From contig JBBDJI010000013.1 of assembly GCA_040879965.1 (NCBI GenBank), positions 298,365-362,364 of the forward strand: a DNA stretch of 64,000 bases. The letters run 5' to 3'. The DNA comes from Candidatus Babeliales bacterium (GTDB lineage: Bacteria > Babelota > Babeliae > Babelales > JACPOV01). Positions 4,185 through 63,106 of this stretch are shown piece by piece (position 1 is the first letter of the stretch; every line of letters begins with the position of its first letter). A program made the translations under genes and the position numbers. Under the pieces are notes generated by a model, which was not told the DNA's origin, searched no databases, and saw nothing but the letters and a program-made list of their open reading frames with translations.

Positions 4185-6680
4185 ATGAGTAAATTTTCCA
4201 ATTGGATTAAAATAACTGCTTTTATCTTTTCTTTTTTTATTTTTTCAGAATTTTCTGCGAATCCTGTGCAGGAAAATCCCGCTGAGTTGGAACAAATTTT
4301 ATCAGAAATGAGTCCTGAAGATCAACAACAGTTGCAAGCTGAGCTTGAAAAATTTAGAGATCAATATTTAGAAGAAAAACGTGATGCCGGATTTAAACTT
4401 TTAGAAACATTCGAATTTCTTTGTGAACATCTTGGTCAAATGATTAACAACAATCAGATAAAAAACTTTGATCGCGAAAATGTATTAGCTCATATTAAAG
4501 AAACAAGAAAAACTATTCACGAACTCAAAAAAAATGCAAAAACCGCATTTGATCCTTACAGCATCAAAATCCTGTTCGATATCATTGAAAGTTACATAAA
4601 TCATCTGCGTACTTTAGTGAAAAATAGCTTAAAAACAGTCCCCGAACTTGATTTACAAGGTGTTATTAAACGAAGCATAGAAAGCGAAAAGTTTGACCCA
4701 GAAGAACTCGAAAAGCAAGTTTTACGCTGTCAAAAAAATATTGAATCACTTGAAAGAGAATCACAAAATGTAGGCCGTTCACTTTTTAATAGAGCGTACT
4801 GTCGTATTGAAAAATTCTGTTCAGATCATCATGTATTTTCTCGTACAGGAAAAGCTTTAATACTTGCACTTGGTGGCTATTGGGTTTTATCTCGTATTAA
4901 CAATGATACTTTTGAATCATTTGGTTTTAATAATGTTCCGGGATTAAATTCATTAAAAGAAAGTATCGGTGAAAATCCTAAATTACAGATCACTAAAATC
5001 GGTGAACATAAATCAATCGAAGTCATAAATCAACCGAATGTAACTACTGCAGGATGGATAGAACATTCTTTAGGAAGAGGTGGATTAAACCTTGTTGATT
5101 TAACATTACCGCCACTTATAACTTGGGCTACCTTGTGGGGACCTTTGCAAAACAATTGGGAAGCTATCAAACTGTGGACACAAAAAAAATGGTCCTATCT
5201 GAGAGGTGTTTTACGCGGTGGGCCCGTCGAAAATAAAACAGAATCATGGAAAAAAGACCCAAAACAAAAATTTGATGATGTTATTGGCCAACAAGCAGCT
5301 AAAGATGCTGTAGTAGCCATTAAAGATAGTGTTATCAATGAAGAAGCATGCCGTAGAGCAGGCATTAAACCAGCACAAGGTATCTTATTTTATGGCCCTC
5401 CTGGTACCGGTAAATCTATGCTTGCAGAAGCACTGGGCACTGAATTCAAAAATCATGTAGATAAGAACATTAACTTCCTTGCAATATGCCCCGCAGATTT
5501 AGAATATCTAAAAGCACTAACTGGTTCTCCAACTGGTATTGGTGCTTTATTTGGATTACTCATACCTGATGGCATTACCGTATTAGTACTTGATGAAATT
5601 GATATGATCGGTTTACAACGTGAACGTGATTCTAAAGAATTAAGTCAATTATTAACTGAAATGAGTGGTATTATGAGTGCTAATTCATCCAAACATATTA
5701 TTGTAATTGGTATCACCAATAGACCTGAAAACTTAGATGATGCATTATTGCGTTCCGGCCGTTTTGGTAAGGCAATCTGGTTTGATTACCCTTCATTGCA
5801 AGATCGTATTACTTACCTTACTCGTGAACTTGAAAATCGTTGCATCATAAATATTGATAGCGATTATATTGAGAAACTTGCAAAAGAAACTGAACGTTGC
5901 ACTTTTGAAGACCTTAACAAAATTCTTACGGGTGCCTTACTAAAAGCAAAAGCTCATAGAGAAGCGTTGAATGAAAATCATCTAGAAGAAGCATTTGATG
6001 AAGAAATTCGTCGCATTTTATTTGATGATTCTTCATTGCCTGAAGAACATAAAAAGATGCTCGCTGCTCATCAAGCCGGTCATGCATTAGCAGCCATGCT
6101 TTTAGATAAAATCAATAAAGTAACCAAAGTAACAATTCGCGCAGTCAGTAAAAAACTGCAAGAAGAATCTATATATGCAAAATATAGTGAAAATGGTAAG
6201 TCAAAAGAAAAAACACAAGCAAATGATCCAATAGAACTCGGTAAGGTTTTCACTGAAAAACCAGACAATGTACGTACGCTCTATACCCGCGATGAACTTA
6301 TAAATCAGATTAAGATTAATCTCGCTGGGCATATTGCAGAAAACATTCTTAGATCTAATGCTGGAAACTATCATAAAGAAGATAAAGAAAAAGCACTTGC
6401 TTATGCGCGACAAATTATTTTTGAAGGCATGGACCCAAATAGCTTGCCAAAAAACATAAAAAATAAGCGCAATCATGAAGCATTTGTCCTCATGAATAAG
6501 TGTGAAAAAGAAATAGAAACGCTTCTCTTGCAGTTCAAAACTGAATTGAAAGAAATTGCTGATACATTACAAGAAAAACTCACACTCAGTTATTCTGAAT
6601 TATTTGCGATTCTTAATAAGTCTCTTGAAAATAATGAAGAAAAGCTAAAAATTGAACCAGTAACAGCACCAGCAGCATAG
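4185..6680 (+). CDS. FtsH-like AAA+ protein with a long N-terminal coiled-coil/membrane region and a degenerate M41 protease domain (HQxxH)
   Basis: Walker A GPPGTGKSM, Walker B VLVLDEID, SRH region LLRSGRFGKAIWFDYPS. The M41-like C-terminal part aligns to FtsH (AAHQAGHALAAMLL, VTKVTIRAV, LAGHIAENIL), but the catalytic Glu of HEXXH is Gln. SD ggagga lies upstream of the ATG. Confidence 0.8.
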   Translation: MSKFSNWIKITAFIFSFFIFSEFSANPVQENPAELEQILSEMSPEDQQQLQAELEKFRDQYLEEKRDAGFKLLETFEFLCEHLGQMINNNQIKNFDRENVLAHIKETRKTIHELKKNAKTAFDPYSIKILFDIIESYINHLRTLVKNSLKTVPELDLQGVIKRSIESEKFDPEELEKQVLRCQKNIESLERESQNVGRSLFNRAYCRIEKFCSDHHVFSRTGKALILALGGYWVLSRINNDTFESFGFNNVPGLNSLKESIGENPKLQITKIGEHKSIEVINQPNVTTAGWIEHSLGRGGLNLVDLTLPPLITWATLWGPLQNNWEAIKLWTQKKWSYLRGVLRGGPVENKTESWKKDPKQKFDDVIGQQAAKDAVVAIKDSVINEEACRRAGIKPAQGILFYGPPGTGKSMLAEALGTEFKNHVDKNINFLAICPADLEYLKALTGSPTGIGALFGLLIPDGITVLVLDEIDMIGLQRERDSKELSQLLTEMSGIMSANSSKHIIVIGITNRPENLDDALLRSGRFGKAIWFDYPSLQDRITYLTRELENRCIINIDSDYIEKLAKETERCTFEDLNKILTGALLKAKAHREALNENHLEEAFDEEIRRILFDDSSLPEEHKKMLAAHQAGHALAAMLLDKINKVTKVTIRAVSKKLQEESIYAKYSENGKSKEKTQANDPIELGKVFTEKPDNVRTLYTRDELINQIKINLAGHIAENILRSNAGNYHKEDKEKALAYARQIIFEGMDPNSLPKNIKNKRNHEAFVLMNKCEKEIETLLLQFKTELKEIADTLQEKLTLSYSELFAILNKSLENNEEKLKIEPVTAPAA

Positions 6681-6701
6681 TTTTACAACAACTGGTTATA
6701 T

Positions 6702-6737
6702 AAAAAAGGTCGCTCGTAAAAATGAGCGACCTTTTTT
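6702..6737. terminator. Bidirectional rho-independent terminator between convergent genes
   Basis: Stem ggtcgctc (6708-6715) pairs with gagcgacc (6724-6731), flanked by an A-run on the left and a T-run on the right. Confidence 0.7.
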
Positions 6738-6752
6738 ATATAACCTATCTTT

Positions 6753-7214
6753 TTATATTTCGATTGCATCAATCATGTCGATTCTTTTTTGATAGCGACC
6801 TTTTTTAAATTCCGTATTGAGCCATACTTCAACCATCTCTTGTGCTTGCTCATTAGTAACATAATCTGATGGAAGTGCTAAAACATTAGTATTATCGTCT
6901 TCTTTACTTTCTTGCGCTATTTGTTTATTCCATGCAAGCCCAGCATAAATGCCGGGATATCGATTCGCGATAATGGCCATGCCTATACCAGTACCACATA
7001 ATAAAATACCATAATCTGCTTTGTCACTACGCATTTGTTCAATTGCTGGTATTGCAAATTCAGGATAATCTGACCGTTCATCATCAAAAGCCCCGACATC
7101 AATCCAAGAAAGAATATATGGTGATAAGTTAACCGTAGCTTTTAAAAATTCTTTCATAGCATAACCACGATGATCGGTAGCAATAACAAGATTAAGATTT
7201 TTATTTTTTTTCAT
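6753..7214 (-). CDS. rpiB: Ribose-5-phosphate isomerase B (RpiB/LacAB family)
   Basis: 153 aa with family motifs IATDHRGY and LLCGTGIGMAIIANR. Confidence 0.85.
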   Translation of the reverse strand: MKKNKNLNLVIATDHRGYAMKEFLKATVNLSPYILSWIDVGAFDDERSDYPEFAIPAIEQMRSDKADYGILLCGTGIGMAIIANRYPGIYAGLAWNKQIAQESKEDDNTNVLALPSDYVTNEQAQEMVEVWLNTEFKKGRYQKRIDMIDAIEI

Positions 7215-44793: not shown

Positions 44794-46041
44794 CTACCAT
44801 CCAAAAACCCTTTTGGTAAAGTTATTCGAAAACATCCCATTCAGATCTAATTTTTTTCTCACATCAATAAATTTAGTTAAATTCTCTCCATATAACTTAA
44901 AGGCATCTTCATACGTTAAATAATTTAATTTTCCCCAATGAGGCCGCCCATTAAATGGTAACAATGTTTTATAGAACTCTTTATAAAAAGGCATGAATTT
45001 TTCTTGAACTGGAGTAGTTACACTTATAAATACCACATCCCGGCCTGCAGCTGGGCTCAAATACATATCCTTTTCTGCATTAACAAAACGGCATAATATG
45101 CCATCAATACTTACTCCTTTTTTCTTATATTCCTTAATTAATTTTTGTACTGCCTCAACTGCCGGCACTAATATTTCTTGTTTTACTGCTATTTCTTCTT
45201 CTAAATATAATGGTGATGGCTGCCCTGAAAGAACTTTATACCCATATTCAATATTTTTTGATTGCGTATCGGTATTCAATATTTTTGAAAACCAAGTTGT
45301 ACGCGATTTCTCAGTTTTATTAAATATATCGACTGCAACTTCATTAGAATCTGCATAGAGAAAAAAAGAAAAGAAATCATTATTCTTGTGTAAATTTGGA
45401 TACTCATGACTTATGATTTTCCAATCAGTTGTATAATGAATATGGCTTACCCAAAATAATGGCACGCATTGCAAGGTTACGGCATAAATTATCCCTAAAG
45501 AACCGATAGTCATACGGCAAGCGGAAAACCATTCAGCATGAGAAGTTTTTGAAACTTCGTATATAGAGCCATCTGCCGCAAGTAATTCTATTTTTATTAC
45601 AAAATCGGCCATAGTACCAGTATTACCGGATCCGTGTGTTGCCGTTGAGACAACGCCCGCGATACTTTGTTCAGTAATTGCTGGTTGATTGGGCAATGCC
45701 AATCCATTATTGGCTAATACTTTTATGAGATCTTTTAATTTTATTCCTGCTTGCACACGGATCTGTTTTTTTTCTTTATCAATTACAAGCACACGATTTA
45801 AATGGTCTGTATTAAGCAAATAACCATCAGTGCACAAAATATCGGTCCATGAATGCCCGGTGCCAATTGCCCGTATTGTTTTCTTCTCAACCGCTGCTTT
45901 CTTTATAATTTCTTTTAAATGTTCAAGATTTCGTGGTTTTATAATTTGTTGCGGATTACACGTTAAATTACCTGCCCAATTTGTCCATTCATCCGCGGCT
46001 AACATGGGAAAAAGAAAAAAAAATAACATATAAATAATCAT
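44794..46041 (-). CDS. FAD-linked sugar-1,4-lactone oxidase family (L-gulonolactone/D-arabinonolactone oxidase-like) with hydrophobic leader
   Basis: NWAGN near the N-terminus, IRAIGTGHSWTDI (FAD_binding_4), C-terminal GRPHWGK (ALO domain). Confidence 0.8.
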   Translation of the reverse strand: MIIYMLFFFLFPMLAADEWTNWAGNLTCNPQQIIKPRNLEHLKEIIKKAAVEKKTIRAIGTGHSWTDILCTDGYLLNTDHLNRVLVIDKEKKQIRVQAGIKLKDLIKVLANNGLALPNQPAITEQSIAGVVSTATHGSGNTGTMADFVIKIELLAADGSIYEVSKTSHAEWFSACRMTIGSLGIIYAVTLQCVPLFWVSHIHYTTDWKIISHEYPNLHKNNDFFSFFLYADSNEVAVDIFNKTEKSRTTWFSKILNTDTQSKNIEYGYKVLSGQPSPLYLEEEIAVKQEILVPAVEAVQKLIKEYKKKGVSIDGILCRFVNAEKDMYLSPAAGRDVVFISVTTPVQEKFMPFYKEFYKTLLPFNGRPHWGKLNYLTYEDAFKLYGENLTKFIDVRKKLDLNGMFSNNFTKRVFGW

Positions 46042-48189: not shown

Positions 48190-49671
48190 ATGAACTGGAT
48201 TCTTTGTTTATTTCTTACGTTGTTCATTAATAATTTTCATATAACCAATAGCAATCAGCATGAAACACCTTCAAAGCAAAGTAATTTTACTCTTTCCTAT
48301 GAAATATGTATGAATCAATTAAACACATTGGAATATACACTTCTTGAAATACTCACTGCATTACATGATCATTTAGAATACTGGGAACAATTACAATTGC
48401 GTCCAATTCGGCGTTTTATCAGTAACGGCCCTTTAAAATGGTTTAAATCTCAATCGCAAACGATAGAAATTAAAGACCACGTCAAAGTTTTACAACAAGA
48501 AATTGAAAATATTAGCCGGTATATTGGCTATTTGCATGAAATTAAACAACAAAAAAAATCTGCTTCCGCTAATTTTGCCCATCAAGAACTTTATCGGTTA
48601 GCGCATATTATCAATAAATGTCTGGATTATTCTGATCCAAATACGCAACCGATTATAAAAGAAAATCTTGAACAAGAACTCAATATACTATTGATGAAAA
48701 ATAAAAAAAAATTAGCTCATTTTAAAAATACTATGAACGGTCGCATTGCAATACATAAAAAACCCTCTCATTTTTCTCGGCATTGGCTCGAATATTCTAT
48801 TGGAGCGCTTTCCGCACTTAGTTCTTTGGCTTACTGGTATAAAAATCATGATAAAGTAAATAAATGGGTACATGACACCCATACTTCTGGCAAAAATTTT
48901 TATCATAATTATGCATATCAACCAATACAAAATATAATCGATATTTTTTATGGTAAATATGAAACTAAAGAACTAATTACTACCGAAGAAATAAAAAATT
49001 TAGAAGAAATGAAAAGAGAAGGAATTATTAATTTTTATAAAAAGCATACTAATCTTGCTGAACAAGAAATTAAAAAAATTGCAGAAGAAGCAATTCAACA
49101 AAAAACTTTACCAGAATTGATTAGAAAAAAATGGTTAGAGACCTCACCAAATGCATTGTGGAATGTATTAATTGGAAGCACAAGATTACCATATATCGGT
49201 AATAAAGATGCCATTTGGCTCGCTCTTTTGAAAATAGATGATGGTATTATCACTGGAAAATCTGCTTTATTACTTGGGCAAGATATACTTAAAGCAAATT
49301 CGCTCAATCAACAAATTCTAGTTGCTATACCTGCCGTACTCACGATACTCGGTGGATGCTATACGATAAAAAAAGCTTATAATTTATTTAAAAAAAATCC
49401 ATTTGATTACATACAAAAAGAATTGATATCAATTGAAAGTATTTTAAATAAGTATAACAACTCGTCAATGTCTATAGATTATACTGCATTAGGTCTTATT
49501 CATTATCATGAATATAAAATCTTAAATAATATCGATTGCATTCCAGTTGGTGATCAAGCACGATTTATTCGTGATCTATCAGAACTCGATTCACTTGAGT
49601 TTTCAATCCCACAAAAAATTGCAACTATTAATCGCATGTATCGCGCCTATCCATTTTTAGTAAAAAAATAA
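48190..49671 (+). CDS. Hypothetical membrane protein
   Basis: 493-aa ORF with signal-like N-terminus and internal hydrophobic segments (SIGALSALSSLAYW, ILVAIPAVLTILGG). No family recognised. Confidence 0.5.
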   Translation: MNWILCLFLTLFINNFHITNSNQHETPSKQSNFTLSYEICMNQLNTLEYTLLEILTALHDHLEYWEQLQLRPIRRFISNGPLKWFKSQSQTIEIKDHVKVLQQEIENISRYIGYLHEIKQQKKSASANFAHQELYRLAHIINKCLDYSDPNTQPIIKENLEQELNILLMKNKKKLAHFKNTMNGRIAIHKKPSHFSRHWLEYSIGALSALSSLAYWYKNHDKVNKWVHDTHTSGKNFYHNYAYQPIQNIIDIFYGKYETKELITTEEIKNLEEMKREGIINFYKKHTNLAEQEIKKIAEEAIQQKTLPELIRKKWLETSPNALWNVLIGSTRLPYIGNKDAIWLALLKIDDGIITGKSALLLGQDILKANSLNQQILVAIPAVLTILGGCYTIKKAYNLFKKNPFDYIQKELISIESILNKYNNSSMSIDYTALGLIHYHEYKILNNIDCIPVGDQARFIRDLSELDSLEFSIPQKIATINRMYRAYPFLVKK

Positions 49672-53114: not shown

Positions 53115-54800
53115 GTGAAAAAAATAATTTTTTTAATTTTTCTTAATATTGTTGCAACTACTTATGCTTCAGAGGATATTCCAGCCGAGTTTCAAAATTA
53201 TCATACCAAAAAATGGCCTCAATTTTTAGTTAATTTTTACAATGCAATTCAAGAAACATTATATGATGTTAAAGAAAATATAACGAGCATTCCGCAAGCC
53301 GTATATTTTAAATTTATCGGCAAACATCCGCATGCTGAAGAACAAGCTATAGTACGATTTTCTGAAAATGATGATATTTCTGATATAGAGAAGGAATTCA
53401 TTAAGCAACGTTTAAAATTTGTGAAAGAAAATTTAGAAAAAGAATTTAATATTTCTTTAGATGAAAATAAAATACCACGAATTGGCCTAATTTTTAGTGG
53501 TGGTGGTTTTCGCGCTATGATTACCACACTTGGCTTTTTATGTGGCGCGCAAACGATAGGACTTCTTGATAATACTTTATACTGTACTGGCCTTTCTGGT
53601 TCAACATGGGCTCTTGCTCCTTGGATTGCTTCTAAAAAACCACTTCTACAATTTACCAAAGAACTTACCAACAAATTATCCTATGGTATAGATCATATAG
53701 ATACCCCTTATGAACTGAGTGAATTATTAGAAATTTTTGTTACAAAATTACTATGTGGTCAATTTATATCTACTATGGATATTTATGGCAACGTTATTGT
53801 AAATACCTTACTCAGAGATTTGATTGATAAGCCTATGCTTATACGCATGACAGAATCTCACGCACATATTTTAAATGGTTCTGCACCGTTACCAATTTAT
53901 ACCGCGATACAAACACATCGCGATCCATATGAATGGATGGAGTTTACGCCATTTGAAGTGGGAAGTTCATATTTAAAATCATATGTGCCAACATGGGCCT
54001 ATGGCAGAAGCTTCTCCGGTGGTTCCTCACATGATTATGCACCAGAACAAACATTAGGTTATTTTTTGGGTATTTTTGGTTCAGCTTTTGAAGTAAACTT
54101 GAAGGATATTGTTCGCATGAGTGCTACTAATCTTTCTTATTATGGTCATCAATTACCAGGAATACTTGCCGGTGCTTTAAAAAAATGCCTTCGTCTTATT
54201 TTAGATTCTTTTTTAGGTGAAATGAGATTATTTCCTTCAATGCTTTCTAATTTTACTTATCTATGCGAGCAAAGCCCTATTTGTGATGAAAAAACAATTC
54301 CACTGGTTGATGCCGGTATTGATTTTAATTTACCTTTTCCGCCATTACTCAGACCGGCACGCAATATGGACATTCTAATTGTGTATGATGCTTCAGCAGA
54401 TATTGAAAATGCACCGGAATTAAGACGAGCAGAACGATATGCGCAGAGAAATGGCCTTAAATTTCCACCTATTAATTATGAAATAGTTGATAAGCAACCA
54501 GTAAGTATTTTTAAAGATACTGAAGATCCGCAGGTACCAATGGTTATTTATTTTCCACGCATAAAAAATATAAATTATTCAATGGAATTTGACCCTGAAT
54601 ATTGCATTGAAGGGGATTATTGCAATACATTCAACTTTAGTTATAAACCAGAAGAAGCAAAATTATTATGTGGCTTTGCAGAATTTGCATTGCATGAACA
54701 ACAAGAACTCATAAAACAATCAATTCAAGATGTGCTTGTGGAAAAATATGGTTATGCAATGACTACGCCCTCAACAGAAGCAATGGAGATTGTAGCATAG
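53115..54800 (+). CDS. Eukaryote-type cytosolic phospholipase A2 / lysophospholipase (PLA2_B, group IV-like) with signal peptide
   Basis: SGGGFRAM (oxyanion/Arg), GLSGSTW (nucleophile Ser), LVDAGIDFNLPFPPLLRPARNMDILIVYDASA (Asp region, close to cPLA2-alpha VDSGLTFNLPYPLILRPQRGVDLIISFDFSA from memory). GTG start after aaggaggggg. Confidence 0.85.
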   Translation: MKKIIFLIFLNIVATTYASEDIPAEFQNYHTKKWPQFLVNFYNAIQETLYDVKENITSIPQAVYFKFIGKHPHAEEQAIVRFSENDDISDIEKEFIKQRLKFVKENLEKEFNISLDENKIPRIGLIFSGGGFRAMITTLGFLCGAQTIGLLDNTLYCTGLSGSTWALAPWIASKKPLLQFTKELTNKLSYGIDHIDTPYELSELLEIFVTKLLCGQFISTMDIYGNVIVNTLLRDLIDKPMLIRMTESHAHILNGSAPLPIYTAIQTHRDPYEWMEFTPFEVGSSYLKSYVPTWAYGRSFSGGSSHDYAPEQTLGYFLGIFGSAFEVNLKDIVRMSATNLSYYGHQLPGILAGALKKCLRLILDSFLGEMRLFPSMLSNFTYLCEQSPICDEKTIPLVDAGIDFNLPFPPLLRPARNMDILIVYDASADIENAPELRRAERYAQRNGLKFPPINYEIVDKQPVSIFKDTEDPQVPMVIYFPRIKNINYSMEFDPEYCIEGDYCNTFNFSYKPEEAKLLCGFAEFALHEQQELIKQSIQDVLVEKYGYAMTTPSTEAMEIVA

Positions 54801-54843: not shown

Positions 54844-55188
54844 ATTTGGCCTCATACCGGCCAAGACATAAGGGTATTGCTTGCCCAATACCCTTAACAC
54901 AAGGGCACCAACGTCCCGTTGGATTATTTTCTCGCTCATAACGAGAAGTCTCATACTTCAGGTTTTCAACCTTCGTCTTCAGATCTCGACTCGCTACCGG
55001 ATTAAAATAAAATAAATTAAAAAAATTCATGTGACCAGATCCGAGGCTTTAGCTGCAAGGAGGAGTGAGCACGAATTTGGGCGAATGAGCAATCCAACAT
55101 GTTGGTGTATTTTTGTCCAGTTTTTTGTACAAGCAAAAAGATTGGTGCTGCGCGCATAGCGCCGGAAGAATTACCGTTTAAAGATCAT
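54844..55188. repeat. GC-rich hairpin-dense element, copy A (~345 nt)
   Basis: Direct repeat of 56960..57365. Two GC-rich arms split by aaaataaaataaattaaaaaa. Hairpins at 54846-54864, 54870-54895, 54908-54922. Lies between convergent gene ends. Confidence 0.85.
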
Positions 55189-55241: not shown

Positions 55242-56270
55242 TTAGTAATTAATAAGTGCTTCAGCAAATATAAATTCTTGTAATGATTGTTGCACATTAG
55301 TCTGCAATTCTTTTATATGCGCTGGAAATGTAGGGTTTGCTATTTGAGAAAAGCTATTAATTATATTATCCAACCAAGTTGCTGAATTATTAATCTCTTG
55401 TATTAATTTTTCGGCCATTTTTTGCAAGCGTATGGCATTTACCGGAGATGTTTTCTTTATTAATTCAACTTTATAATACATAAACCCAAGTGTCGCGGAG
55501 AGCTGCTGAATATATAACTCCCAAGTTGAGATAAACAAAACACGATTATATTCCTTTTTTTCTCCGTTTACCAGCGCTGGATTATTGATATTGTTAATAG
55601 TTTCATTTGTTTTGCTCATTTGCGTAGCATAATTTTCAAGCTCATTTGATAAATCGTTTATATTTACTTTATTAGTTAAAAACCAATTCAAATCTCGATT
55701 ATGGAAAAATTTAGCCATAAATCGGTCAACCGTTGTATCAAAAATTTTAAAATATTTACCAAATGGGTTCATAGCGCTCGTTACTATTTGTGAAACCGCA
55801 ATTAATAAACATTGATTACCCAAGAATCGTCCCCATCCTTTTAAATAACCGCTACGTTTCATTGGAAGTCCGACATCTTCTCCATAGTCTGCTAAGCGTT
55901 CGCGTATTACTTCAAAAGCTTTATCTCTATCTTGTAAACTTTTTTGTTGCGCTTGAATAATTTCTGCCTGTTTTATTACAAATGAATATTGATCATCCAT
56001 ATTAATCTTGCTAGACAAAACAGGAGATAAATTTTCTACTATTTTTGGCGCCTCAAAAAAAATTTTATAGCCATAATAACCAATACTCAACAATCCTGCA
56101 GCAACCATCCCTGTTTTTATAATTGAATTATTTCTTAATTCTTGTGCTATCTGTTGTTTATAGGAATCGATTTTAGACTGTTCAATGCGAACGATAGTTT
56201 CATCACTATACAAAAAGGCATTAAACATAAAGCTGAAAAGAGTTAAAGAAATAAATTGACTAATTTTCAC
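55242..56270 (-). CDS. Hypothetical secreted/membrane protein
   Basis: 342-aa ORF with signal-like N-terminus and one internal TM (TGMVAAGLLSIGYYGYKIFF). Confidence 0.5.
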   Translation of the reverse strand: MKISQFISLTLFSFMFNAFLYSDETIVRIEQSKIDSYKQQIAQELRNNSIIKTGMVAAGLLSIGYYGYKIFFEAPKIVENLSPVLSSKINMDDQYSFVIKQAEIIQAQQKSLQDRDKAFEVIRERLADYGEDVGLPMKRSGYLKGWGRFLGNQCLLIAVSQIVTSAMNPFGKYFKIFDTTVDRFMAKFFHNRDLNWFLTNKVNINDLSNELENYATQMSKTNETINNINNPALVNGEKKEYNRVLFISTWELYIQQLSATLGFMYYKVELIKKTSPVNAIRLQKMAEKLIQEINNSATWLDNIINSFSQIANPTFPAHIKELQTNVQQSLQEFIFAEALINY

Positions 56271-56959: not shown

Positions 56960-57365
56960 ATTTGGCCTCATGCCGGCCAAGGCATAAGGGTATTGCGTGC
57001 CCAATACCCTTAACACAAGGGCACCAACTTTCCGTTGGATTATTTTTCCGCTCATAACGAGAACTCTCATACTTCAGGTTTTCAACCTTCGTCTTCGGAT
57101 CTCGACTCGCTACCGGTCGTCATTTATCCAAGTTTTAAAAACATTGGGCTTTCTTGATATAAGTAAAATAAAATAAATTAAAAAATCATGTGAGCCTACG
57201 TATGGCCCGATCCGAGGCCTTACTGGCCGCAGGATGAGTGGGCACGAATTTGGGCGAATAAGCGATCCAACAGCATGTTGGTGTATTTTTGTCCAGTTTT
57301 TTTGTACAAACAAAAAAATTGGTGATGCGCGCACAGCGCCGTGAGAATTACCGTTTAAAGATCAT
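56960..57365. repeat. GC-rich hairpin-dense element, copy B (~406 nt)
   Basis: Same element as 54844..55188 with two extra internal segments (about 49 nt after ...ctaccgg and about 13 nt in the right arm). Lies in the divergent dtd/ppa intergenic region. Confidence 0.85.
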
Positions 57366-57440
57366 ACGAAAAATACTTTATTTTCAGCTATATCAATGTT
57401 ATTCTAAAAATATCAAATTCCCTTAGTTTTTAGGAAAAAA

Positions 57441-57995
57441 ATGCAAAATAATTCTCATGACCGCTTTTTTCATCCTTGGCATTCACTGCCAATTGGCCCT
57501 GAAGCGCCGAATAAAGTGCAAAGTATTATCGAAATTCAACAAGGATCAAAAGCTAAATATGAACTTGATAAATTAACCGGGTTTTTGAGATTAGATCGTA
57601 TCCTAGCTTCAAACTTGAGCTATCCTTTTCATTATGGGTTTATTCCCCAAACTTATTGCCCCGATAATGACCCTTTAGATATTTTAATTTTATGTTCTGA
57701 AGCATTATTACCACTGAGTATTGTAGAAGCTACCGTACTTGGCGCAATAAAAATGCTTGATGGCGGCCAGCAAGACGACAAAATTATCGCCGTTGCAAGC
57801 AATGATCCCTTTATGAAAGGGAAAAAAGAATTATCGGATATCAATCCAGAAACATTAAATACCATTCAGAACTTTTTTGAAAATTATAAAAAGCCTGAAG
57901 GTAAAACCGTTATTATTCAAGATATCATGAATCGAGAAGATGCACTTAATATAGTCAAAGACAGCGTAAAGCTCTATCAAAAACAATTTAAATAA
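57441..57995 (+). CDS. ppa: Inorganic pyrophosphatase (family I)
   Basis: IIEIQQGSKAKYELD, YGFIPQT, DNDPLDILIL, DDKIIAV. Confidence 0.9.
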   Translation: MQNNSHDRFFHPWHSLPIGPEAPNKVQSIIEIQQGSKAKYELDKLTGFLRLDRILASNLSYPFHYGFIPQTYCPDNDPLDILILCSEALLPLSIVEATVLGAIKMLDGGQQDDKIIAVASNDPFMKGKKELSDINPETLNTIQNFFENYKKPEGKTVIIQDIMNREDALNIVKDSVKLYQKQFK

Positions 57996-58043
57996 TTATT
58001 TTTCATTTTGTAACACATGTTTTTCTGCAATAATATATGAATA

Positions 58044-58409
58044 TCAACCCTTGGGTCGAATAAATTTTTCCAACCCATAGAGCGTACAAGCACCTGCTGC
58101 CAACAAGCCAATCATTTGTTTTATTGATAACGCATCGGCTGGAAGAACTCCTGAAAAAGTATTGCTCGTGGATAATTTATCGATAACTAATATGCTCGTT
58201 AAAAAAGAAGAACTTAAAGCACAAATTCCATAACCTATTTTTGCCGTTAATGCGGTATTGTATCGCAAATCTTTTATAAAATTACTTATTATTTCCGGTG
58301 ATTGTTTTGGAACTGCATTAAGCGAATATATTTGCGATATCAAAAAGATGCTAAATATCAAGTGAAAACATTTATGCATTGTATTCTTTCTTTTCATTTT
58401 CTTCTTCAA
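58044..58409 (-). CDS. Small signal-peptide membrane protein, distant member (P5) of the tandem family
   Basis: ORF with probable start ATG 58379, overlapping the stop of the upstream gene as ATGCATAA. Hydrophobic leader and Gly/Ala-rich C-terminal helix. Confidence 0.45.
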   Translation of the reverse strand: MKKKMKRKNTMHKCFHLIFSIFLISQIYSLNAVPKQSPEIISNFIKDLRYNTALTAKIGYGICALSSSFLTSILVIDKLSTSNTFSGVLPADALSIKQMIGLLAAGACTLYGLEKFIRPKG

Positions 58410-58890
58410 CTTCTAACGCTTTGCTTGCACAATAACACATAAGCGCATAAACAAAACCTTTCAAAACTATTTTTTCTTCAGAAATATTTAATTTGTGACT
58501 CGCTTGCCTTACCTCTCCCCAGTCAAAAAAATAATCTGCAAAAGTTCTCCAAGAAAGAACATGAAAAAGAAACCCGAACGTATAAACAGTATTCGAAGAA
58601 AATTGGCGTGCTGTTTTTACCGTTTTTAAATCCCAGAATTTTTTTAATATTCTTTTTATTTTTTGATAATTAGAATGCATAAAATTATTTGGTTCATTTT
58701 CAATACTTTTGATAAGCACTGCAGTCATCAAAGAACTCATTATTGAAGCAACAAACGCCGTTTTTATTTCAGGATTTTGCATTATTGATTGCGTTGGTTT
58801 TTTAATATTAAAACAATCACTCCAAGTAGCGCAAGCCGCCTGAAATAACGCTATACTGAAAATTAAAATAACTATTTTTAATTTTTTCAT
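58372..58890 (-). CDS. Small signal-peptide protein, tandem family member P4
   Basis: Start ATG 58890 after ggggg. Shares ATWSDCF.IKKPTQS, VKTARQF and FVYALMCYCASKALEV with P1 and P2. Confidence 0.55.
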   Translation of the reverse strand: MKKLKIVILIFSIALFQAACATWSDCFNIKKPTQSIMQNPEIKTAFVASIMSSLMTAVLIKSIENEPNNFMHSNYQKIKRILKKFWDLKTVKTARQFSSNTVYTFGFLFHVLSWRTFADYFFDWGEVRQASHKLNISEEKIVLKGFVYALMCYCASKALEVEEENEKKEYNA

Positions 58891-59004
58891 TAAGACCCCC
58901 AAGTAAGCTGTTTTATTTAACCGATATTTTTTATCTTATCTCTCAGTTGCAAAAAGTAAATCGGGCCAAAATTTGTTAATTTTAATTATTTTTATTGAGC
59001 TTTT

Positions 59005-59373
59005 TCAATTATTTTTTGGCCTATCTTCTGCTAAAAAACATGATAAAGCCGCTAAAGTTACTGCAGTCAAACTATATCCCGCTAAAAATTTTTTACTTGG
59101 ATGAAAATCAAGTTTATCCGTAATTTTTTTTAAATCACCTTGCAGCGCAGCTGCATAAGGTACACCAACCATCACAAGACCCACATAAAACGCACTATCA
59201 GATATATATTTGCGCACCGTTTTGTCATTTTTTAAATGCCATGCAGCTTGTTGAACACCATTTTTAACAGTTTTGATTGATGGAAACCAATCAGTAATTC
59301 CGGCCTGCACATTTGCACCGGCAAAAGAAATAAAAAGCATGCTTAATAACATTAATTTTATAGACATATTCAT
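59005..59373 (-). CDS. Small signal-peptide protein, tandem family member P3
   Basis: N-terminal ISFAGANVQAGITDWF is identical to P2. The downstream part is diverged. Confidence 0.55.
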   Translation of the reverse strand: MNMSIKLMLLSMLFISFAGANVQAGITDWFPSIKTVKNGVQQAAWHLKNDKTVRKYISDSAFYVGLVMVGVPYAAALQGDLKKITDKLDFHPSKKFLAGYSLTAVTLAALSCFLAEDRPKNN

Positions 59374-59416
59374 AATTAAATCTCCATAAGTAAGTTAATA
59401 ATTAACAGGACAAAAA

Positions 59417-59857
59417 TTATTTATTTTCTTCAGTTTCGTTGCCAATCTCAGGTTGAGATTCAGTTTCAGTTTTGGTTTCTACACTTTTCTTTTTATCCAC
59501 TTCCAATGTTTTACTTAAACAATAAGCAGCTAAAGCAAAAGCAAAAGTTTTTCCAATAGATTGAATCATAGTTTTATCACTCAATCCACAAACTTGTTTA
59601 AATTCGGGATACCATAAGGCGTAAAGTCCTAAATTCATCCAGCCAAAAATAGAAAATATCTGAGCTGCCATATAAGTATTACTAGAAACAAATCTACGTG
59701 CCGTTTTACTAACTTCTGTATTCCATACAGATTGCGTAGCATTTGTAACACTTTTAACTGGTTTTTTAAACCAATCAGTAATTCCTGCTTGCACATTTGC
59801 ACCGGCAAAAGAAATAAGAAGCATACCTAATAATATTGATTTTACAGAATTATTCAT
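59417..59857 (-). CDS. Small signal-peptide protein, tandem family member P2
   Basis: SILLGMLLISFAGANVQAGITDWFKKPVKSVTNATQSVWNTEVSKTARRF is nearly identical to P1. Acidic Glu/Thr-rich tail. Confidence 0.6.
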   Translation of the reverse strand: MNNSVKSILLGMLLISFAGANVQAGITDWFKKPVKSVTNATQSVWNTEVSKTARRFVSSNTYMAAQIFSIFGWMNLGLYALWYPEFKQVCGLSDKTMIQSIGKTFAFALAAYCLSKTLEVDKKKSVETKTETESQPEIGNETEENK

Positions 59858-59987
59858 AATTAAACCCCCATAAGTAAGTTAATAATTAAAAAAGGAAAAG
59901 GAGCTAGGAACCTAACTCTTCTTGTTTAATTATTAATCTAATTTTTTTATTCTGATACCGTTTCTATTGTTGTTGCAGTGTTAGTTT

Positions 59988-60371
59988 CTATAACTTTTCA
60001 GGCTTTTTATCCACTCTTATTGCAGTACTTAAGCAATAAGCAGCTAAAGCAAAAGCAAAAGGTTTTCCAAGAGCGCGAATTACCGTTGTATCATTCAATT
60101 CACAAAATTGTTCAAACCAATGATTATTACAAAAATACCCTGCTAGATTAATCCAGCCAATAAAAGTAAGCACATGGCCTAATCCACGTGCGTTAATCGA
60201 AGCAAATCGACGCGCTGTTTTACTAACTTCTGCATTCCATGCAGATTGCGTAGCATTTGTAACACTTTTAACTGGTTTTTTAAACCAATCAGTAATTCCT
60301 GCCTGCATATTTGCGCCGGCAAAAGAAACAAAAAGTATACCTAATAATATTGATTTTATAGACTTATTCAT
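59988..60371 (-). CDS. Small signal-peptide protein, tandem family member P1
   Basis: Start ATG 60371 preceded by ggagg. SILLGILFVSFAGANMQAGITDWFKKPVKSVTNATQSAWNAEVSKTARRF and the C-terminal FAFALAAYCLS helix are shared with P2. Confidence 0.6.
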   Translation of the reverse strand: MNKSIKSILLGILFVSFAGANMQAGITDWFKKPVKSVTNATQSAWNAEVSKTARRFASINARGLGHVLTFIGWINLAGYFCNNHWFEQFCELNDTTVIRALGKPFAFALAAYCLSTAIRVDKKPEKL

Positions 60372-60505
60372 ATTAAACCTCCACATTAAAGTCTTATGTT
60401 AATTATAGGCTAAAATTATCAGAACTTAAGTTAATTGTCAAAATACTAATCAATTTGAAAGTATTTTATTGGTGCTTGTTGTTTTTAATTTCTATTTAAC
60501 AAATT

Positions 60506-63106
60506 TTATTTGGATGCAAGCATTCTTTTTAAATATTTTCCAGTATGACTTTGGGTATTTTTTGCTACTTGTTCAGGTGTGCCTTGCGCGACAACTTGGC
60601 CTCCTGCATCACCACCTTCTGGGCCCATGTCGATAATATAATCGGCTGTTTTGAGCACATCAATATTATGTTCAATGACTATCATTGAATTGCCTTTATC
60701 AATCAATCGATTTAAAACAAGCAATAATTTTTCGATATCACTGTTATGTAATCCAGTCGTCGGTTCATCTAAAATATACAAAGTTTTATTGCCTCGTTTT
60801 GCAAGTTCGTCAACTAACTTGATACGCTGCGCTTCACCACCTGATAACGTAATAGAAGACTGACCTAGTTTTACATAATCAAGCCCCACATCACAAAGCA
60901 ATTGTAATCGTTTTGCAATATTTTTATGTGCAGCAAAAAATTCAACTGCTTCAAGCGCCGTCATATCAAGCACTTCAGCAATATTTTTATCTCTATAACG
61001 AATAGTTAATGTTTCAATATTATATCGTTTTCCTTTGCATATTTTGCAAGTCATAACTACATCAGCTAAAAATTGCATTGAAACGGTAATAGTTCCATCA
61101 CCGCGGCATTCAAAACAACGCCCCTCAGCTACATTAAAACTAAATCGCCCTGGTTTATATCCGCGTGCTTGGCTTTCTGGTAACCGCGTAAATAATTTTC
61201 TAATTTCATCAAAAATACCTAAATACGTTGCGGGATTTGAACGCGGCGTACGGCCAATTGGAGATTGATCAATAACCACTAATGAATCAACATGCTCTAG
61301 GCCTTTTAATTCATCAGTATCATTAATAGTACGAGCTTTACGCGCAAAACCAGCAAATGCTTGTTGTACCGCGGGTACAATTTCATCAAGAACTAAAGTG
61401 CTTTTGCCAGAACCGGATACACCTGATATGCAACACAATACTTCAAGTGGGACTTTAACTTCTAAGTTTTTTAAATTATTTTTTTGCGCATGCGAAAGTG
61501 TTAGGAAATGTTTTAATGTACGTCGTTTTTTAGGTATTGCAATACCACGACGTCCTGCTAAATAGGCACCAGTTAATGATGCGGTATTTTCTGCTAATTG
61601 TTTTGGATTACCGACTGCAGTTACATGGCCACCAAGTGTTCCAGCAGCAGGGCCCATATCTACAATATAATCAGCTTCTAACATGGTATCGGTATCATGC
61701 TCTACTACAACAACGGTATTACCTTGATCACGCAATGTTTTTAATGTTTGAATTAAGCGATCATTATCACGTTGATGCAAACCAATGCTTGGTTCATCAA
61801 GAATATATAATACGCCACTTAATGCAGAACCAATTTGCGTTGCTAAGCGAATACGCTGCCCTTCACCGCCTGATAATGTTCGGGCTGAACGATTAAGCGT
61901 AAGGTATGAAAGACCAACATCGTATAAAAATTGGAAACGACTGGTTATTTCTTTAATTAAATTTTCTGCAATTGCCTGATCAGTCTCCGGCAATGAAAGT
62001 TCTTTGAAAAAAGCTAAAGCCTCTTTAATTGAAAAATCACATACATCAACAATATGCTTATTTTGTATCGTGACTGCTAAAGCATGCTTATGTAAACGCT
62101 TGCCAAAACAACTGCGACATGTTTTCTCTTGTGCATGAGAACCAAAAAAATCAGGATAGTTTGATTTCCAATTTTCTTTATCGCCTTCTTTCCATGGCCA
62201 TATATGAATAACACCTAATCCATTACATTCTTTACAAGCGCCGATGGGCGAATTAAAAGAGAAAAATCGTGGTTCTAATTCAGGAAATGCAGTCGAACAA
62301 TGCAAACACATGCGATGCGACGAATATAAATGCTCATCAGTCCCAACCATAATCTTGCATAGCCCTTCAGCAAGTTGAAAAGATTTTTCTATGGCTTCTT
62401 GCACGCGAGAACGTTCATCATTAGTAATTTCTAATTTATCAATCAGCAAATCAATAGAATGCTTATAGGTTTTTGCTAACTTTAATGATTTAATTTCATC
62501 TTCACTTGTAAAACGATATGAAGTGCCATCAATAATAAATCGATAAAATCCATTTTGATACAACTGCAATAATTGTTGCTTAAATTCGCCTTTTTTTTGA
62601 TTAACGATTGGCGCCGCAATAGTAATCATGTTTTCTTTAAATTGAGTCAAAATAAGACTTGCAATATTTTCGGGTGATTGTTGTTGGATTATTAGGCCAC
62701 AATCAGGACAATGCGGCTTACCTATTCGTGCATAAAGTACCCGCAAATAATCATAAATTTCAGTAATGGTACCTACCGTGGAACGAGGATTATGACCTAC
62801 CGTTTTTTGCTCAATCGCAATCGCCGGGCAAAGCCCTTCAATACGGTCAAAATCTGGCTTTTTAGCAATGCCAAGAAATTGACGCGCATATGATGATAAA
62901 GATTCCATATAACGTCGCTTACCTTCAGTATAGAGTACATCAAGCGCTAAAGAGCTTTTCCCTGAACCGGAGGGACCCGTAATTACCGTCAATTTATTTT
63001 TAGGAATTTCTAAATCAACGTTTTTCAGGTTATGCTCACGAGCACCGATGATTTTGATCCATTCGGTCGACTTTTTAGTATTTTTTGGAGAATTCTCTCT
63101 ATTCAT
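60506..63106 (-). CDS. uvrA: Excinuclease ABC subunit A (UvrA) with a strongly shortened insertion domain
   Basis: Two ABC modules (GPSGSGKSSLA / LSGGEGQRIRLA and GVSGSGKSTL / LSGGEAQRIKL). Zinc modules HCPDC, MCLHC, ACKEC, TCRSC. Only 35 residues separate CKEC and CRSC. 866 aa. Confidence 0.9.
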   Translation of the reverse strand: MNRENSPKNTKKSTEWIKIIGAREHNLKNVDLEIPKNKLTVITGPSGSGKSSLALDVLYTEGKRRYMESLSSYARQFLGIAKKPDFDRIEGLCPAIAIEQKTVGHNPRSTVGTITEIYDYLRVLYARIGKPHCPDCGLIIQQQSPENIASLILTQFKENMITIAAPIVNQKKGEFKQQLLQLYQNGFYRFIIDGTSYRFTSEDEIKSLKLAKTYKHSIDLLIDKLEITNDERSRVQEAIEKSFQLAEGLCKIMVGTDEHLYSSHRMCLHCSTAFPELEPRFFSFNSPIGACKECNGLGVIHIWPWKEGDKENWKSNYPDFFGSHAQEKTCRSCFGKRLHKHALAVTIQNKHIVDVCDFSIKEALAFFKELSLPETDQAIAENLIKEITSRFQFLYDVGLSYLTLNRSARTLSGGEGQRIRLATQIGSALSGVLYILDEPSIGLHQRDNDRLIQTLKTLRDQGNTVVVVEHDTDTMLEADYIVDMGPAAGTLGGHVTAVGNPKQLAENTASLTGAYLAGRRGIAIPKKRRTLKHFLTLSHAQKNNLKNLEVKVPLEVLCCISGVSGSGKSTLVLDEIVPAVQQAFAGFARKARTINDTDELKGLEHVDSLVVIDQSPIGRTPRSNPATYLGIFDEIRKLFTRLPESQARGYKPGRFSFNVAEGRCFECRGDGTITVSMQFLADVVMTCKICKGKRYNIETLTIRYRDKNIAEVLDMTALEAVEFFAAHKNIAKRLQLLCDVGLDYVKLGQSSITLSGGEAQRIKLVDELAKRGNKTLYILDEPTTGLHNSDIEKLLLVLNRLIDKGNSMIVIEHNIDVLKTADYIIDMGPEGGDAGGQVVAQGTPEQVAKNTQSHTGKYLKRMLASK

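Follow-up and report, generated by a model that had tools for sequence, protein, structure and literature searches.

Four tandem paralogs of predicted small exported proteins carry a conversion-like mosaic between uvrA and ppa in a Candidatus Babeliales genome

Five small minus-strand genes, here called P1 to P5 and numbered from the uvrA side, stand in a row in a 'Candidatus Babeliales bacterium' metagenome-assembled genome (MAG; Dependentiae, TM6). They span 58044-60371 (within the interval 58044-60386) of the window, by which we mean the whole stretch of 64,000 nucleotides (nt) that was analysed, part of a 501-kb contig. The array is flanked by uvrA (60506-63106, minus strand; Pfam UvrA_inter/ABC_tran) and by the convergent inorganic pyrophosphatase gene ppa (57441-57995, plus strand). 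Our reading, to which we assign a probability of roughly 0.6, is that P1-P4 form a lineage-specific orphan family of small exported envelope proteins in an obligate-intracellular member of the Babeliales, duplicated in tandem and subsequently shaped by gene conversion. The first-pass annotation of this stretch had described five paralogs built from a conserved N-terminal export module and a variable C-terminal module, a mosaic attributed to gene conversion or diversifying selection. The conversion part of that proposal held up, and other parts had to be changed as set out below.

The evidence that carries this reading comes from P1 and P2, which align without gaps over 123 residues at 64% identity and in which three blocks can be told apart:

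60201-60371, minus strand: 5' homogenised tract of P1, codons 1-57 (P2 partner 59687-59857; repeat family D1)
60075-60200, minus strand: variable middle block of P1, codons 58-99 (P2 partner 59561-59686)
60006-60074, minus strand: 3' homogenised tract of P1, codons 100-122, GK.FAFALAAYCLS..VDKK (P2 partner 59492-59560; repeat family D2)

Over codons 1-57 the two genes are 92% identical at the nucleotide level (157/171 nt) with a synonymous divergence (dS) of 0.14; over codons 58-99 (126 nt) identity falls to 59% in nucleotides and 33% in amino acids (aa), with dS of 0.93 and a ratio of nonsynonymous to synonymous divergence (dN/dS) of 0.58; and over codons 100-122, the last ~70 nt, nucleotide identity returns to 84% and dS to 0.14. 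The pattern is conserved-variable-conserved. Near-identity of the first ~170 nt followed by sharp divergence was thus described correctly in the first pass, while 'divergent 3' halves' is wrong for this pair and a design of conserved N-terminus and variable C-terminus does not fit it, the C-terminus being likewise conserved. The longest identical run shared by P1 and P2 is 61 nt (permutation p<5e-5), and synonymous differences occupy 7 of ~54 sites in the end blocks and 13 of ~25 in the middle (Fisher's exact test, p=5e-4). Because synonymous divergence itself varies along the pair (0.14/0.93/0.14), gene conversion is the best explanation of the mosaic. Low dS of this kind, in discrete tracts that continue into flanking non-coding sequence, is what partial gene conversion, or unequal recombination, leaves behind in old duplicates, and such tract-confined low dS cannot be produced by protein-level selection alone. 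P1 and P2 accordingly behave as a concerted-evolution pair, with tract dS significantly below that of the rest of the same pair.

Likeness of the end blocks could in principle arise without conversion, through nucleotide or protein constraint on translation initiation, on the signal peptide or on an interaction motif, and the conserved blocks do coincide with the Shine-Dalgarno motif, the signal peptide and the FAFALAAYCLS helix. We consider this very unlikely: synonymous sites are about six-fold less diverged in the end blocks than in the middle, the likeness extends into the non-coding leader and the 3' untranslated region (3'UTR), and dN/dS of the P1/P2 signal peptide is 0.86, so that protein-level constraint there is not strong. 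Diversifying selection, the other cause offered in the first pass, is contradicted by the ratios, which are 0.27-0.49 in the N-terminal part and 0.58 in the variable block, where a diversifying family would exceed 1; only the C-terminal 23-codon block reaches 1.37, a value derived from 11 substitutions.

P3 joins the first tract only. Each pair among P1, P2 and P3 has 86-89% identity over the first 90 coding nt, nt 73-90 (encoding GITDWF) are identical across the three genes, and the informative sites of this shared 90-nt segment conflict 6:4:4; past nt 90, P3 drops to ~60% nucleotide identity to P1 and P2. The common leader and the motif SFAGAN[VM]QAGITDWF of P1-P3 were therefore described accurately in the first pass. 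Upstream of the coding sequence, a 22-nt leader is the same before P2 and P3, with no third match at ≤3 mismatches in the window and 0.01 expected:

59868-59889, minus strand: 22-nt leader of P2, TTAATTATTAACTTACTTATGG, continuing into the GGGGG Shine-Dalgarno motif
59384-59405, minus strand: 22-nt leader of P3, TTAATTATTAACTTACTTATGG, an exact copy of the P2 leader

At the other end of P1, the 3'UTR (59900-59999 compared with 59380-59500) resembles the coding sequence of the P2 acidic tail, with indels shifting the register by 5 nt (p about 0.009). Because this resemblance persists, the alignment indicates that P1 lost its acidic tail through a 5-nt indel frameshift leading to an early stop, and that P2 keeps the tail.

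These observations suggest the following history. P1-P4 would derive from tandem duplication, and the duplication would be old, because dS is ~0.9 in the P1/P2 middle and P3 and P4 are saturated. Short tracts of conversion or unequal recombination would later have re-homogenised three regions to dS ~0.14, namely the leader, signal peptide and GITDWF segment (P1/P2/P3), the next 80 nt (P1/P2) and the last 70 nt (P1/P2), and the 5-nt indel would have put P1 out of frame for the acidic tail retained in P2. P5 would be a separate gene of like build, probably translationally coupled to P4.

Membership of the family was assessed by pairwise alignment and shuffling. The first 62-68 residues of P3 align with P1 and P2 at 52% identity; its C-terminal half gives z of 0-2.5 against P1 or P2 and a weak z of 4.5 against P4. 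Residues 86-172 of P4 match residues 45-123 of P2 at z=19 over shuffles, and the similarity of its N-terminus is weak (z=4.9), which makes P4, noted in the first pass for its degenerate family motifs, a true divergent paralog. An origin of P4 by internal duplication, with its second hydrophobic segment as a former signal peptide, is not supported, the segment scoring only z=0-1. No significant similarity of P5 to P1-P4 was found by BLASTP, family hidden Markov model (HMM) or shuffling tests. On these alignments the array is a set of four paralogs (P1-P4) plus one gene of like architecture (P5), and the count of five paralogs stands for P1-P4 and fails for P5.

The individual genes, each given with its best start codon, are as follows:

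59988-60371, minus strand: P1, 127 aa; called from the ORF, a GGAGG Shine-Dalgarno motif 6 nt ahead of the ATG at 60371, an NCBI call of equal length, and hydropathy; predicted plan: signal peptide 1-24 (..ANMQA↓G, the arrow marking the predicted cut), basic amphipathic segment 25-57, hydrophobic helix about 63-86, marginal second helix about 100-118, tail KKPEKL
59417-59857, minus strand: P2, 146 aa; plan of P1 plus an acidic tail of ~25 aa (VETKTETESQPEIGNETEENK)
59005-59373, minus strand: P3, 122 aa; leader, signal peptide and GITDWF in common with P1 and P2
58372-58890, minus strand: P4, 172 aa; own predicted signal peptide (..QAACA↓TW), degenerate TWSDCF/KKPTQS motif, ~45-aa insertion (residues 40-85) with an extra hydrophobic segment (42-60), then the W..KTARQF..two-helix core
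58044-58379, minus strand: P5, 111 aa; predicted signal peptide and two hydrophobic helices
58372-58379, minus strand: overlap of the P4 stop and the P5 start, ATGCATAA, by direct reading
59891-59918, minus strand: terminator-like hairpin and T-run between P1 and P2, GAGTTAGGTTCCTAGCTC then CTTTTCCTTT, a match to the consensus only

The existence of five consecutive minus-strand genes, asserted in the first pass, is confirmed by the open reading frames (ORFs) and by the NCBI hypothetical-protein calls WDZ41_05395 to 05415, which have the same lengths. Purine-rich Shine-Dalgarno motifs lie 6-8 nt ahead of the ATG (GGAGG, GGGGG, GGAGA and GGGGG for P1-P4), and the GC content of the array is about 31%, the same as that of its surroundings. 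The P4 stop/P5 ATG overlap, likewise reported earlier, was found at the place given above; it is compatible with translational coupling, which we regard as probable. An alternative in-frame ATG for P5 lies 18 nt upstream at 58397 (MKRKNTMHK...).

Since the source is a MAG, the array might be an assembly artefact of stitched strain variants, or its ORFs might be spurious products of AT-rich sequence. An independent Logan assembly of SRR27977663 contains a 2478-bp contig that is 100% identical to window positions 57280-59757 and covers the 3' part of P2, P3, P4, P5 and ppa. It breaks inside P2, leaving the P1-P2 junction seen once, and the genes have no homologues in the searched collections, both of which would suit an artefact. 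The contig end falls, however, exactly within the 61-nt P1/P2 identical run, as expected of a k=31 assembler at a true repeat. P1 and P2 are not collapsed strain variants, because their flanks differ and the internal 126-nt block is saturated. Shine-Dalgarno motifs, ORFs, predicted signal peptides and an indel-free 122-codon P1/P2 alignment with conserved frame and dN/dS of 0.27-0.58 speak for real genes, as does the dN/dS of 0.43-0.62 for a P5 ortholog fragment, and we find an artefact scarcely credible.

Protein features were predicted by hand rules and hydropathy scales. A signal peptide was called on a K/R-containing n-region, an uncharged h-region of 10-15 residues and small residues at -3/-1. 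All five proteins have such an n-h-c signal peptide ending in a small-x-small motif: MN.S(I/V)K, a 13-residue h-region and AN(V/M)QA↓G in P1-P3; MKKLK, IVILIFSIALF and QAACA↓T in P4; and MHK, CFHLIFSIFLIS and QIYSLNA↓V in P5. By this rule P1-P5 all read as pre-proteins of the Sec/signal peptidase I pathway, and the earlier description of a secreted or envelope family was reasonable. No lipobox ([LVI][ASTVI][GAS]C) occurs in the five proteins; a Cys close to the predicted cut is seen in P4 alone (FQAAC), with Q at -3. A type IV pilin or pseudopilin motif (G↓FTLIE-like) is absent from all five. The mature part of P1-P3 starts with a basic amphipathic stretch, ITDWFKKPVKSVTNATQS (hydrophobic moment 0.58). 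Membrane insertion is favoured by 6-11 kcal/mol on the Wimley-White octanol scale for P1 68-86, P2 66-84, P4 96-114 and P5 48-66; a second, weaker helix follows 12-20 residues from the first and is succeeded by a charged tail (Kyte-Doolittle and Wimley-White scales). P1-P4 show AxxxA-like spacing only, and neither P1-P5 nor their positional analogues in two related genomes (L001 and L005, below) have a Pfam match to the glycine-zipper 2TM/Rickettsia 17-kDa antigen families (PF05433 and relatives). For P2, AlphaFold2 (AF2) with a four-sequence alignment returned an all-helical model (helices 33-46, 51-81, 83-90 and 94-119), and a Foldseek search of this model against PDB gave generic helical hairpins and bundles only (E>1).

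From these features we infer that P1-P5 are Sec-exported envelope proteins anchored by a helical hairpin. Each gene product would be exported by Sec and cut by signal peptidase I after small-x-small (VQA↓G, ACA↓T, LNA↓V), and the mature protein of 90-150 aa, predicted to be all-helical, would open at its N-terminus with an amphipathic segment of basic character, continue with the hairpin anchor, made of a membrane-competent helix and a hydrophobic helix that is marginal, and close with a charged tail. The N-terminus and the acidic tail would lie in the periplasm. By analogy with many signal-peptide orphans of the phylum, the proteins probably act at the interface between bacterium and host.

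It is also conceivable, if unlikely, that the proteins are soluble helical bundles, released into the periplasm or beyond the cell, whose hydrophobic segments are buried core helices. In keeping with this, the first segment is rich in aromatic rather than aliphatic residues and the second is marginal, the AF2 model has helices 51-81 and 94-119 packed together, and the fold search returned the generic matches mentioned above. What favours the membrane hairpin instead is the insertion energy of the first helices and the Gly/Ala-rich, zipper-like helices, typical of membrane hairpins, in the positional analogues of related genomes; the AF2 model on which the packing depends has low confidence.

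Several points weigh against the exported, conversion-shaped family proposed here. The genes come from a MAG and are known from sequence alone, with the P1-P2 junction present in the MAG only; the P1/P2 contrast in dS is based on ~20 synonymous changes; cleavage and topology calls derive from hand rules and hydropathy scales; the insertion energy of the second helix is only 0.1-1.9 kcal/mol (Wimley-White; P1, P2, P4 and P5), so that a single-pass or soluble protein is possible; the AF2 model, built on 4 sequences, has a pLDDT of 56; and the host-interface role is deduced solely from the lifestyle of the phylum.

Homologues of P1-P4 outside this genome were found in none of the searched collections. 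A P1-P4 profile run against 5.8 billion proteins recovered the four query proteins only, and an exhaustive HMMER search of 1.84 billion cluster representatives recovered the family itself and four WD40 or other repeat proteins. The latter (E down to 5e-9) were rejected after their sequences were read, as chance matches through KTARLWD/KTARRF or GINDWY/GITDW motifs; a short motif that recurs 4-10 times in a repeat protein inflates profile E-values, a caution for this kind of search. Scans of P1-P5 with Pfam, NCBIfam, PHROGs and PADLOC gave nothing above noise, a PDB sequence search was empty, two metagenome scans (one with the P1-P4 profile, one with an alignment of P5 and its ortholog) found no relatives, and tblastn of P1-P5 against the ten closest Babeliales uvrA loci gave nothing at E<0.02. 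An orthologous array was not found in any collection searched.

A single relative of P5 is known, a fragment of 80 aa encoded by the 615-bp ENA contig L082 (ERZ27297473 k141_1273672), with dN/dS of 0.43-0.62. At 314-613 of this contig, the 5' part of P5 (signal peptide and mature N-terminus) is present at 87% aa identity and dS of 0.15 and then runs into a stop, and the 3' half is in place but inverted, on the other strand, at 57% aa identity and dS of 0.65. The junction carries 9-11 nt of inverted microhomology; either the inversion is genuine or this short contig is a chimera. Upstream, a non-coding repeat element stands in place of a P4-like gene. No convincing inverted repeats flank P5 in the window, and no recombinase or invertase was found among ten ORFs scanned with Pfam between 41777 and 63106. 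An invertase-driven switch is therefore not supported, and the pairing of flanking inverted repeats with a nearby site-specific recombinase that marks a shufflon is lacking here.

The inversion, together with the contrast in dS between the 5' and 3' parts of P5, could point to a programmed or selected variation system, in which a constant export module is joined to mature parts varied by positive selection or cassette recombination; a conserved leader and signal peptide ahead of divergent mature regions, and the rapid evolution of this genomic slot (75.5% identity of a slot protein against 89.5-91.8% for its neighbours, see below), fit that idea as well. We nevertheless judge it improbable. 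The variable block has dN/dS below 1, there are only four copies, each complete with its own start and stop, with no silent cassettes, the scanned ORFs hold no invertase or recombinase within 20 kb, and the inversion is known from that single short contig. Its fuller form, in which the array including P5 would be a recombination-driven variable envelope or host-interface family, with module exchange and possibly inversion of the P5 3' part yielding variants during infection of protists, has in our estimate an even more remote chance of being right and draws mainly on the one odd contig. To our knowledge, such a variation system would be the first described in Dependentiae.

We thus return to tandem duplication and conversion in an orphan family, a reading that agrees with what is reported for the phylum. 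For Chromulinavorax destructans, which apart from the amoeba isolates was the first protist-infecting member to be cultured, signal peptides are reported in 44% of the coding sequences (CDS), a set enriched in ORFans, and a Sec system is reported as well (PMC6561590); type II secretion components are listed in the TM6 core (PMC4776705). In the window, 32/58 non-nested ORFs (>=100 aa) have a signal-peptide-like or hydrophobic N-terminal start by a crude n-h-c rule, and an array of orphan signal-peptide genes is, on these two proportions, typical of the phylum. Within that phylum, the array fits exactly among the signal-peptide ORFans described by Deeg et al. (2019, PMC6561590), although these make up a descriptive class rather than a homologous family. 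The word 'paralog' does not occur in PMC6561590, and tandem conversion-shaped arrays were not found described in it.

For the mosaic itself, the closest analogies appear to be Helicobacter pylori babA/babB and Mycoplasma vlp/vsp. In babA/babB and other Hop paralogs the 5' and 3' ends are near-identical and the middle is divergent, a state kept by intragenomic gene conversion. P1/P2 have the same conserved-variable-conserved shape, although babA/babB encode large beta-barrel outer-membrane adhesins at dispersed loci, whereas P1-P4 are small, helical by prediction and in tandem, and there is no sequence or fold relation. Mycoplasma vlp/vsp genes are clustered in tandem; their 5' untranslated leader and signal peptide are strongly conserved and their mature regions divergent, and the array matches them in all three respects. 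They differ in having a lipobox, repetitive mature regions and phase-variable promoters, and the array has neither a lipobox nor, as far as found, internal repeats, a homopolymer or an invertible switch. VirB2/TrbC pilins are made as pre-proteins of ~110-130 aa in which a signal peptide precedes two hydrophobic helices, and tandem divergent copies are possible in Anaplasmataceae. Size, signal peptide, paired helices and tandem copies are thus shared, but P1-P5 have no Pfam match at E<=1, PF04956 (VirB2/TrbC) included, and no type IV secretion system genes were seen among the ten scanned ORFs (41777-63106); the scanned neighbours are uvrA, ppa, dtd, mutS and similar genes. Chlamydial Inc proteins are small, lineage-specific and fast-evolving proteins of an obligate intracellular bacterium, often clustered and with paired hydrophobic helices, and in size, lineage restriction, helix pairing and host lifestyle they resemble the array. 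They differ in that Inc proteins use a type III signal for secretion and their hydrophobic domain is contiguous and bilobed, whereas the array has a predicted cleavable Sec signal peptide and helices 12-20 residues apart. Two TM6/Dependentiae genome papers, searched by keyword, mention type II secretion, Sec and possibly type IV pili, and type III secretion was not looked for in them (PMC6561590, PMC4776705).

The same interval was compared in related genomes. The closest GTDB-representative genomes, L001 (JAGVLQ01) and L005 (JBFWNW01), have uvrA genes that are 79-80% identical to that of the window, followed by convergent ppa and then by a signal-peptide protein of ~300-390 aa homologous to the window ORF at 55242-56270. 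Between uvrA and ppa, L001 has a glyoxalase-like gene and one small protein (6553-6972), and L005 a glyoxalase-like gene and two small proteins (14320-14805 and 14868-15242), all three small proteins with a predicted signal peptide and two Gly/Ala-rich hydrophobic helices. Similarity of these positional analogues to P1-P5, or to one another, was undetectable, and homology with P1-P5 is not supported. The L001 protein is itself an orphan with a single relative, on L083 (4264-4683), to which it is 75.5% identical, compared with 89.5% for uvrA and 91.8% for ppa. In the more distant Babeliales L002 (12747-13160), L003 and L014 (1775-2761), small signal-peptide proteins stand directly after uvrA. 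Variable extras in the slot include the glyoxalase-like gene, a 385-aa ORF and a NodZ/FUT8-like gene. Judged by synteny, small proteins of predicted export, either fast-evolving or replaced, occupy a variable slot between uvrA and ppa, which different lineages would have filled with different proteins; in the lineage of the window the slot holds a four-fold expanded family plus P5.

If this reading is correct, the locus would be a clean, small example of how the exported proteome is renewed in obligate intracellular Dependentiae, with one syntenic slot refilled in each lineage by orphan signal-peptide membrane proteins that duplicate and then swap ends by conversion. It would be of use in annotating the large fraction of proteins labelled 'hypothetical, signal peptide' and would add to the candidate list of host-interface proteins. 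No general concept is altered: P1-P4 are a new but ordinary lineage-specific family, and a conversion mosaic is well-known behaviour of tandem paralogs.

On the far side of ppa, the ORF at 55242-56270 (minus strand) encodes a 342-aa signal-peptide protein with no Pfam family. Its relatives adjoining ppa in L001 (394 aa) and L005 (304 aa) are ~23% identical, proteins alike in size and build follow uvrA or dtd in L003, L006, L007 and L010, and together they look like a Babeliales-specific envelope protein family. The segment made up of this ORF and dtd is flanked by two direct copies of a non-coding element (54844-55188 and 56960-57365; ~350-410 nt, 90-97% identical in blocks), with a GC content of 0.40 against 0.32 for the genome and a perfect 11-bp hairpin, TAAGGGTATTG...CAATACCCTTA. 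One block (57195-57370) gives a good plus-strand fold, at z=-4.0. Over 155 nt the repeat matches L082, a contig from another metagenome, at 92% identity; it sits there immediately ahead of the P5 relative and is better conserved than the coding DNA (83%). Searches gave no Rfam match at E<=1 and no tRNA or tmRNA match, and a known RNA is not supported; the element is a candidate new non-coding RNA or small mobile element.

Elsewhere in the window, two ORFs of 866 aa that might have been taken for a duplication are the unrelated MutS and UvrA. Three further ORFs, at 44794-46041, 48190-49671 and 53115-54800, carry eukaryote-type domains, namely D-arabinono-1,4-lactone oxidase (ALO), NCA2 (a mitochondrial ATP-synthase regulator) and a cPLA2-type lysophospholipase (PLA2_B) with a signal peptide, and these may be host-acquired or host-targeting.

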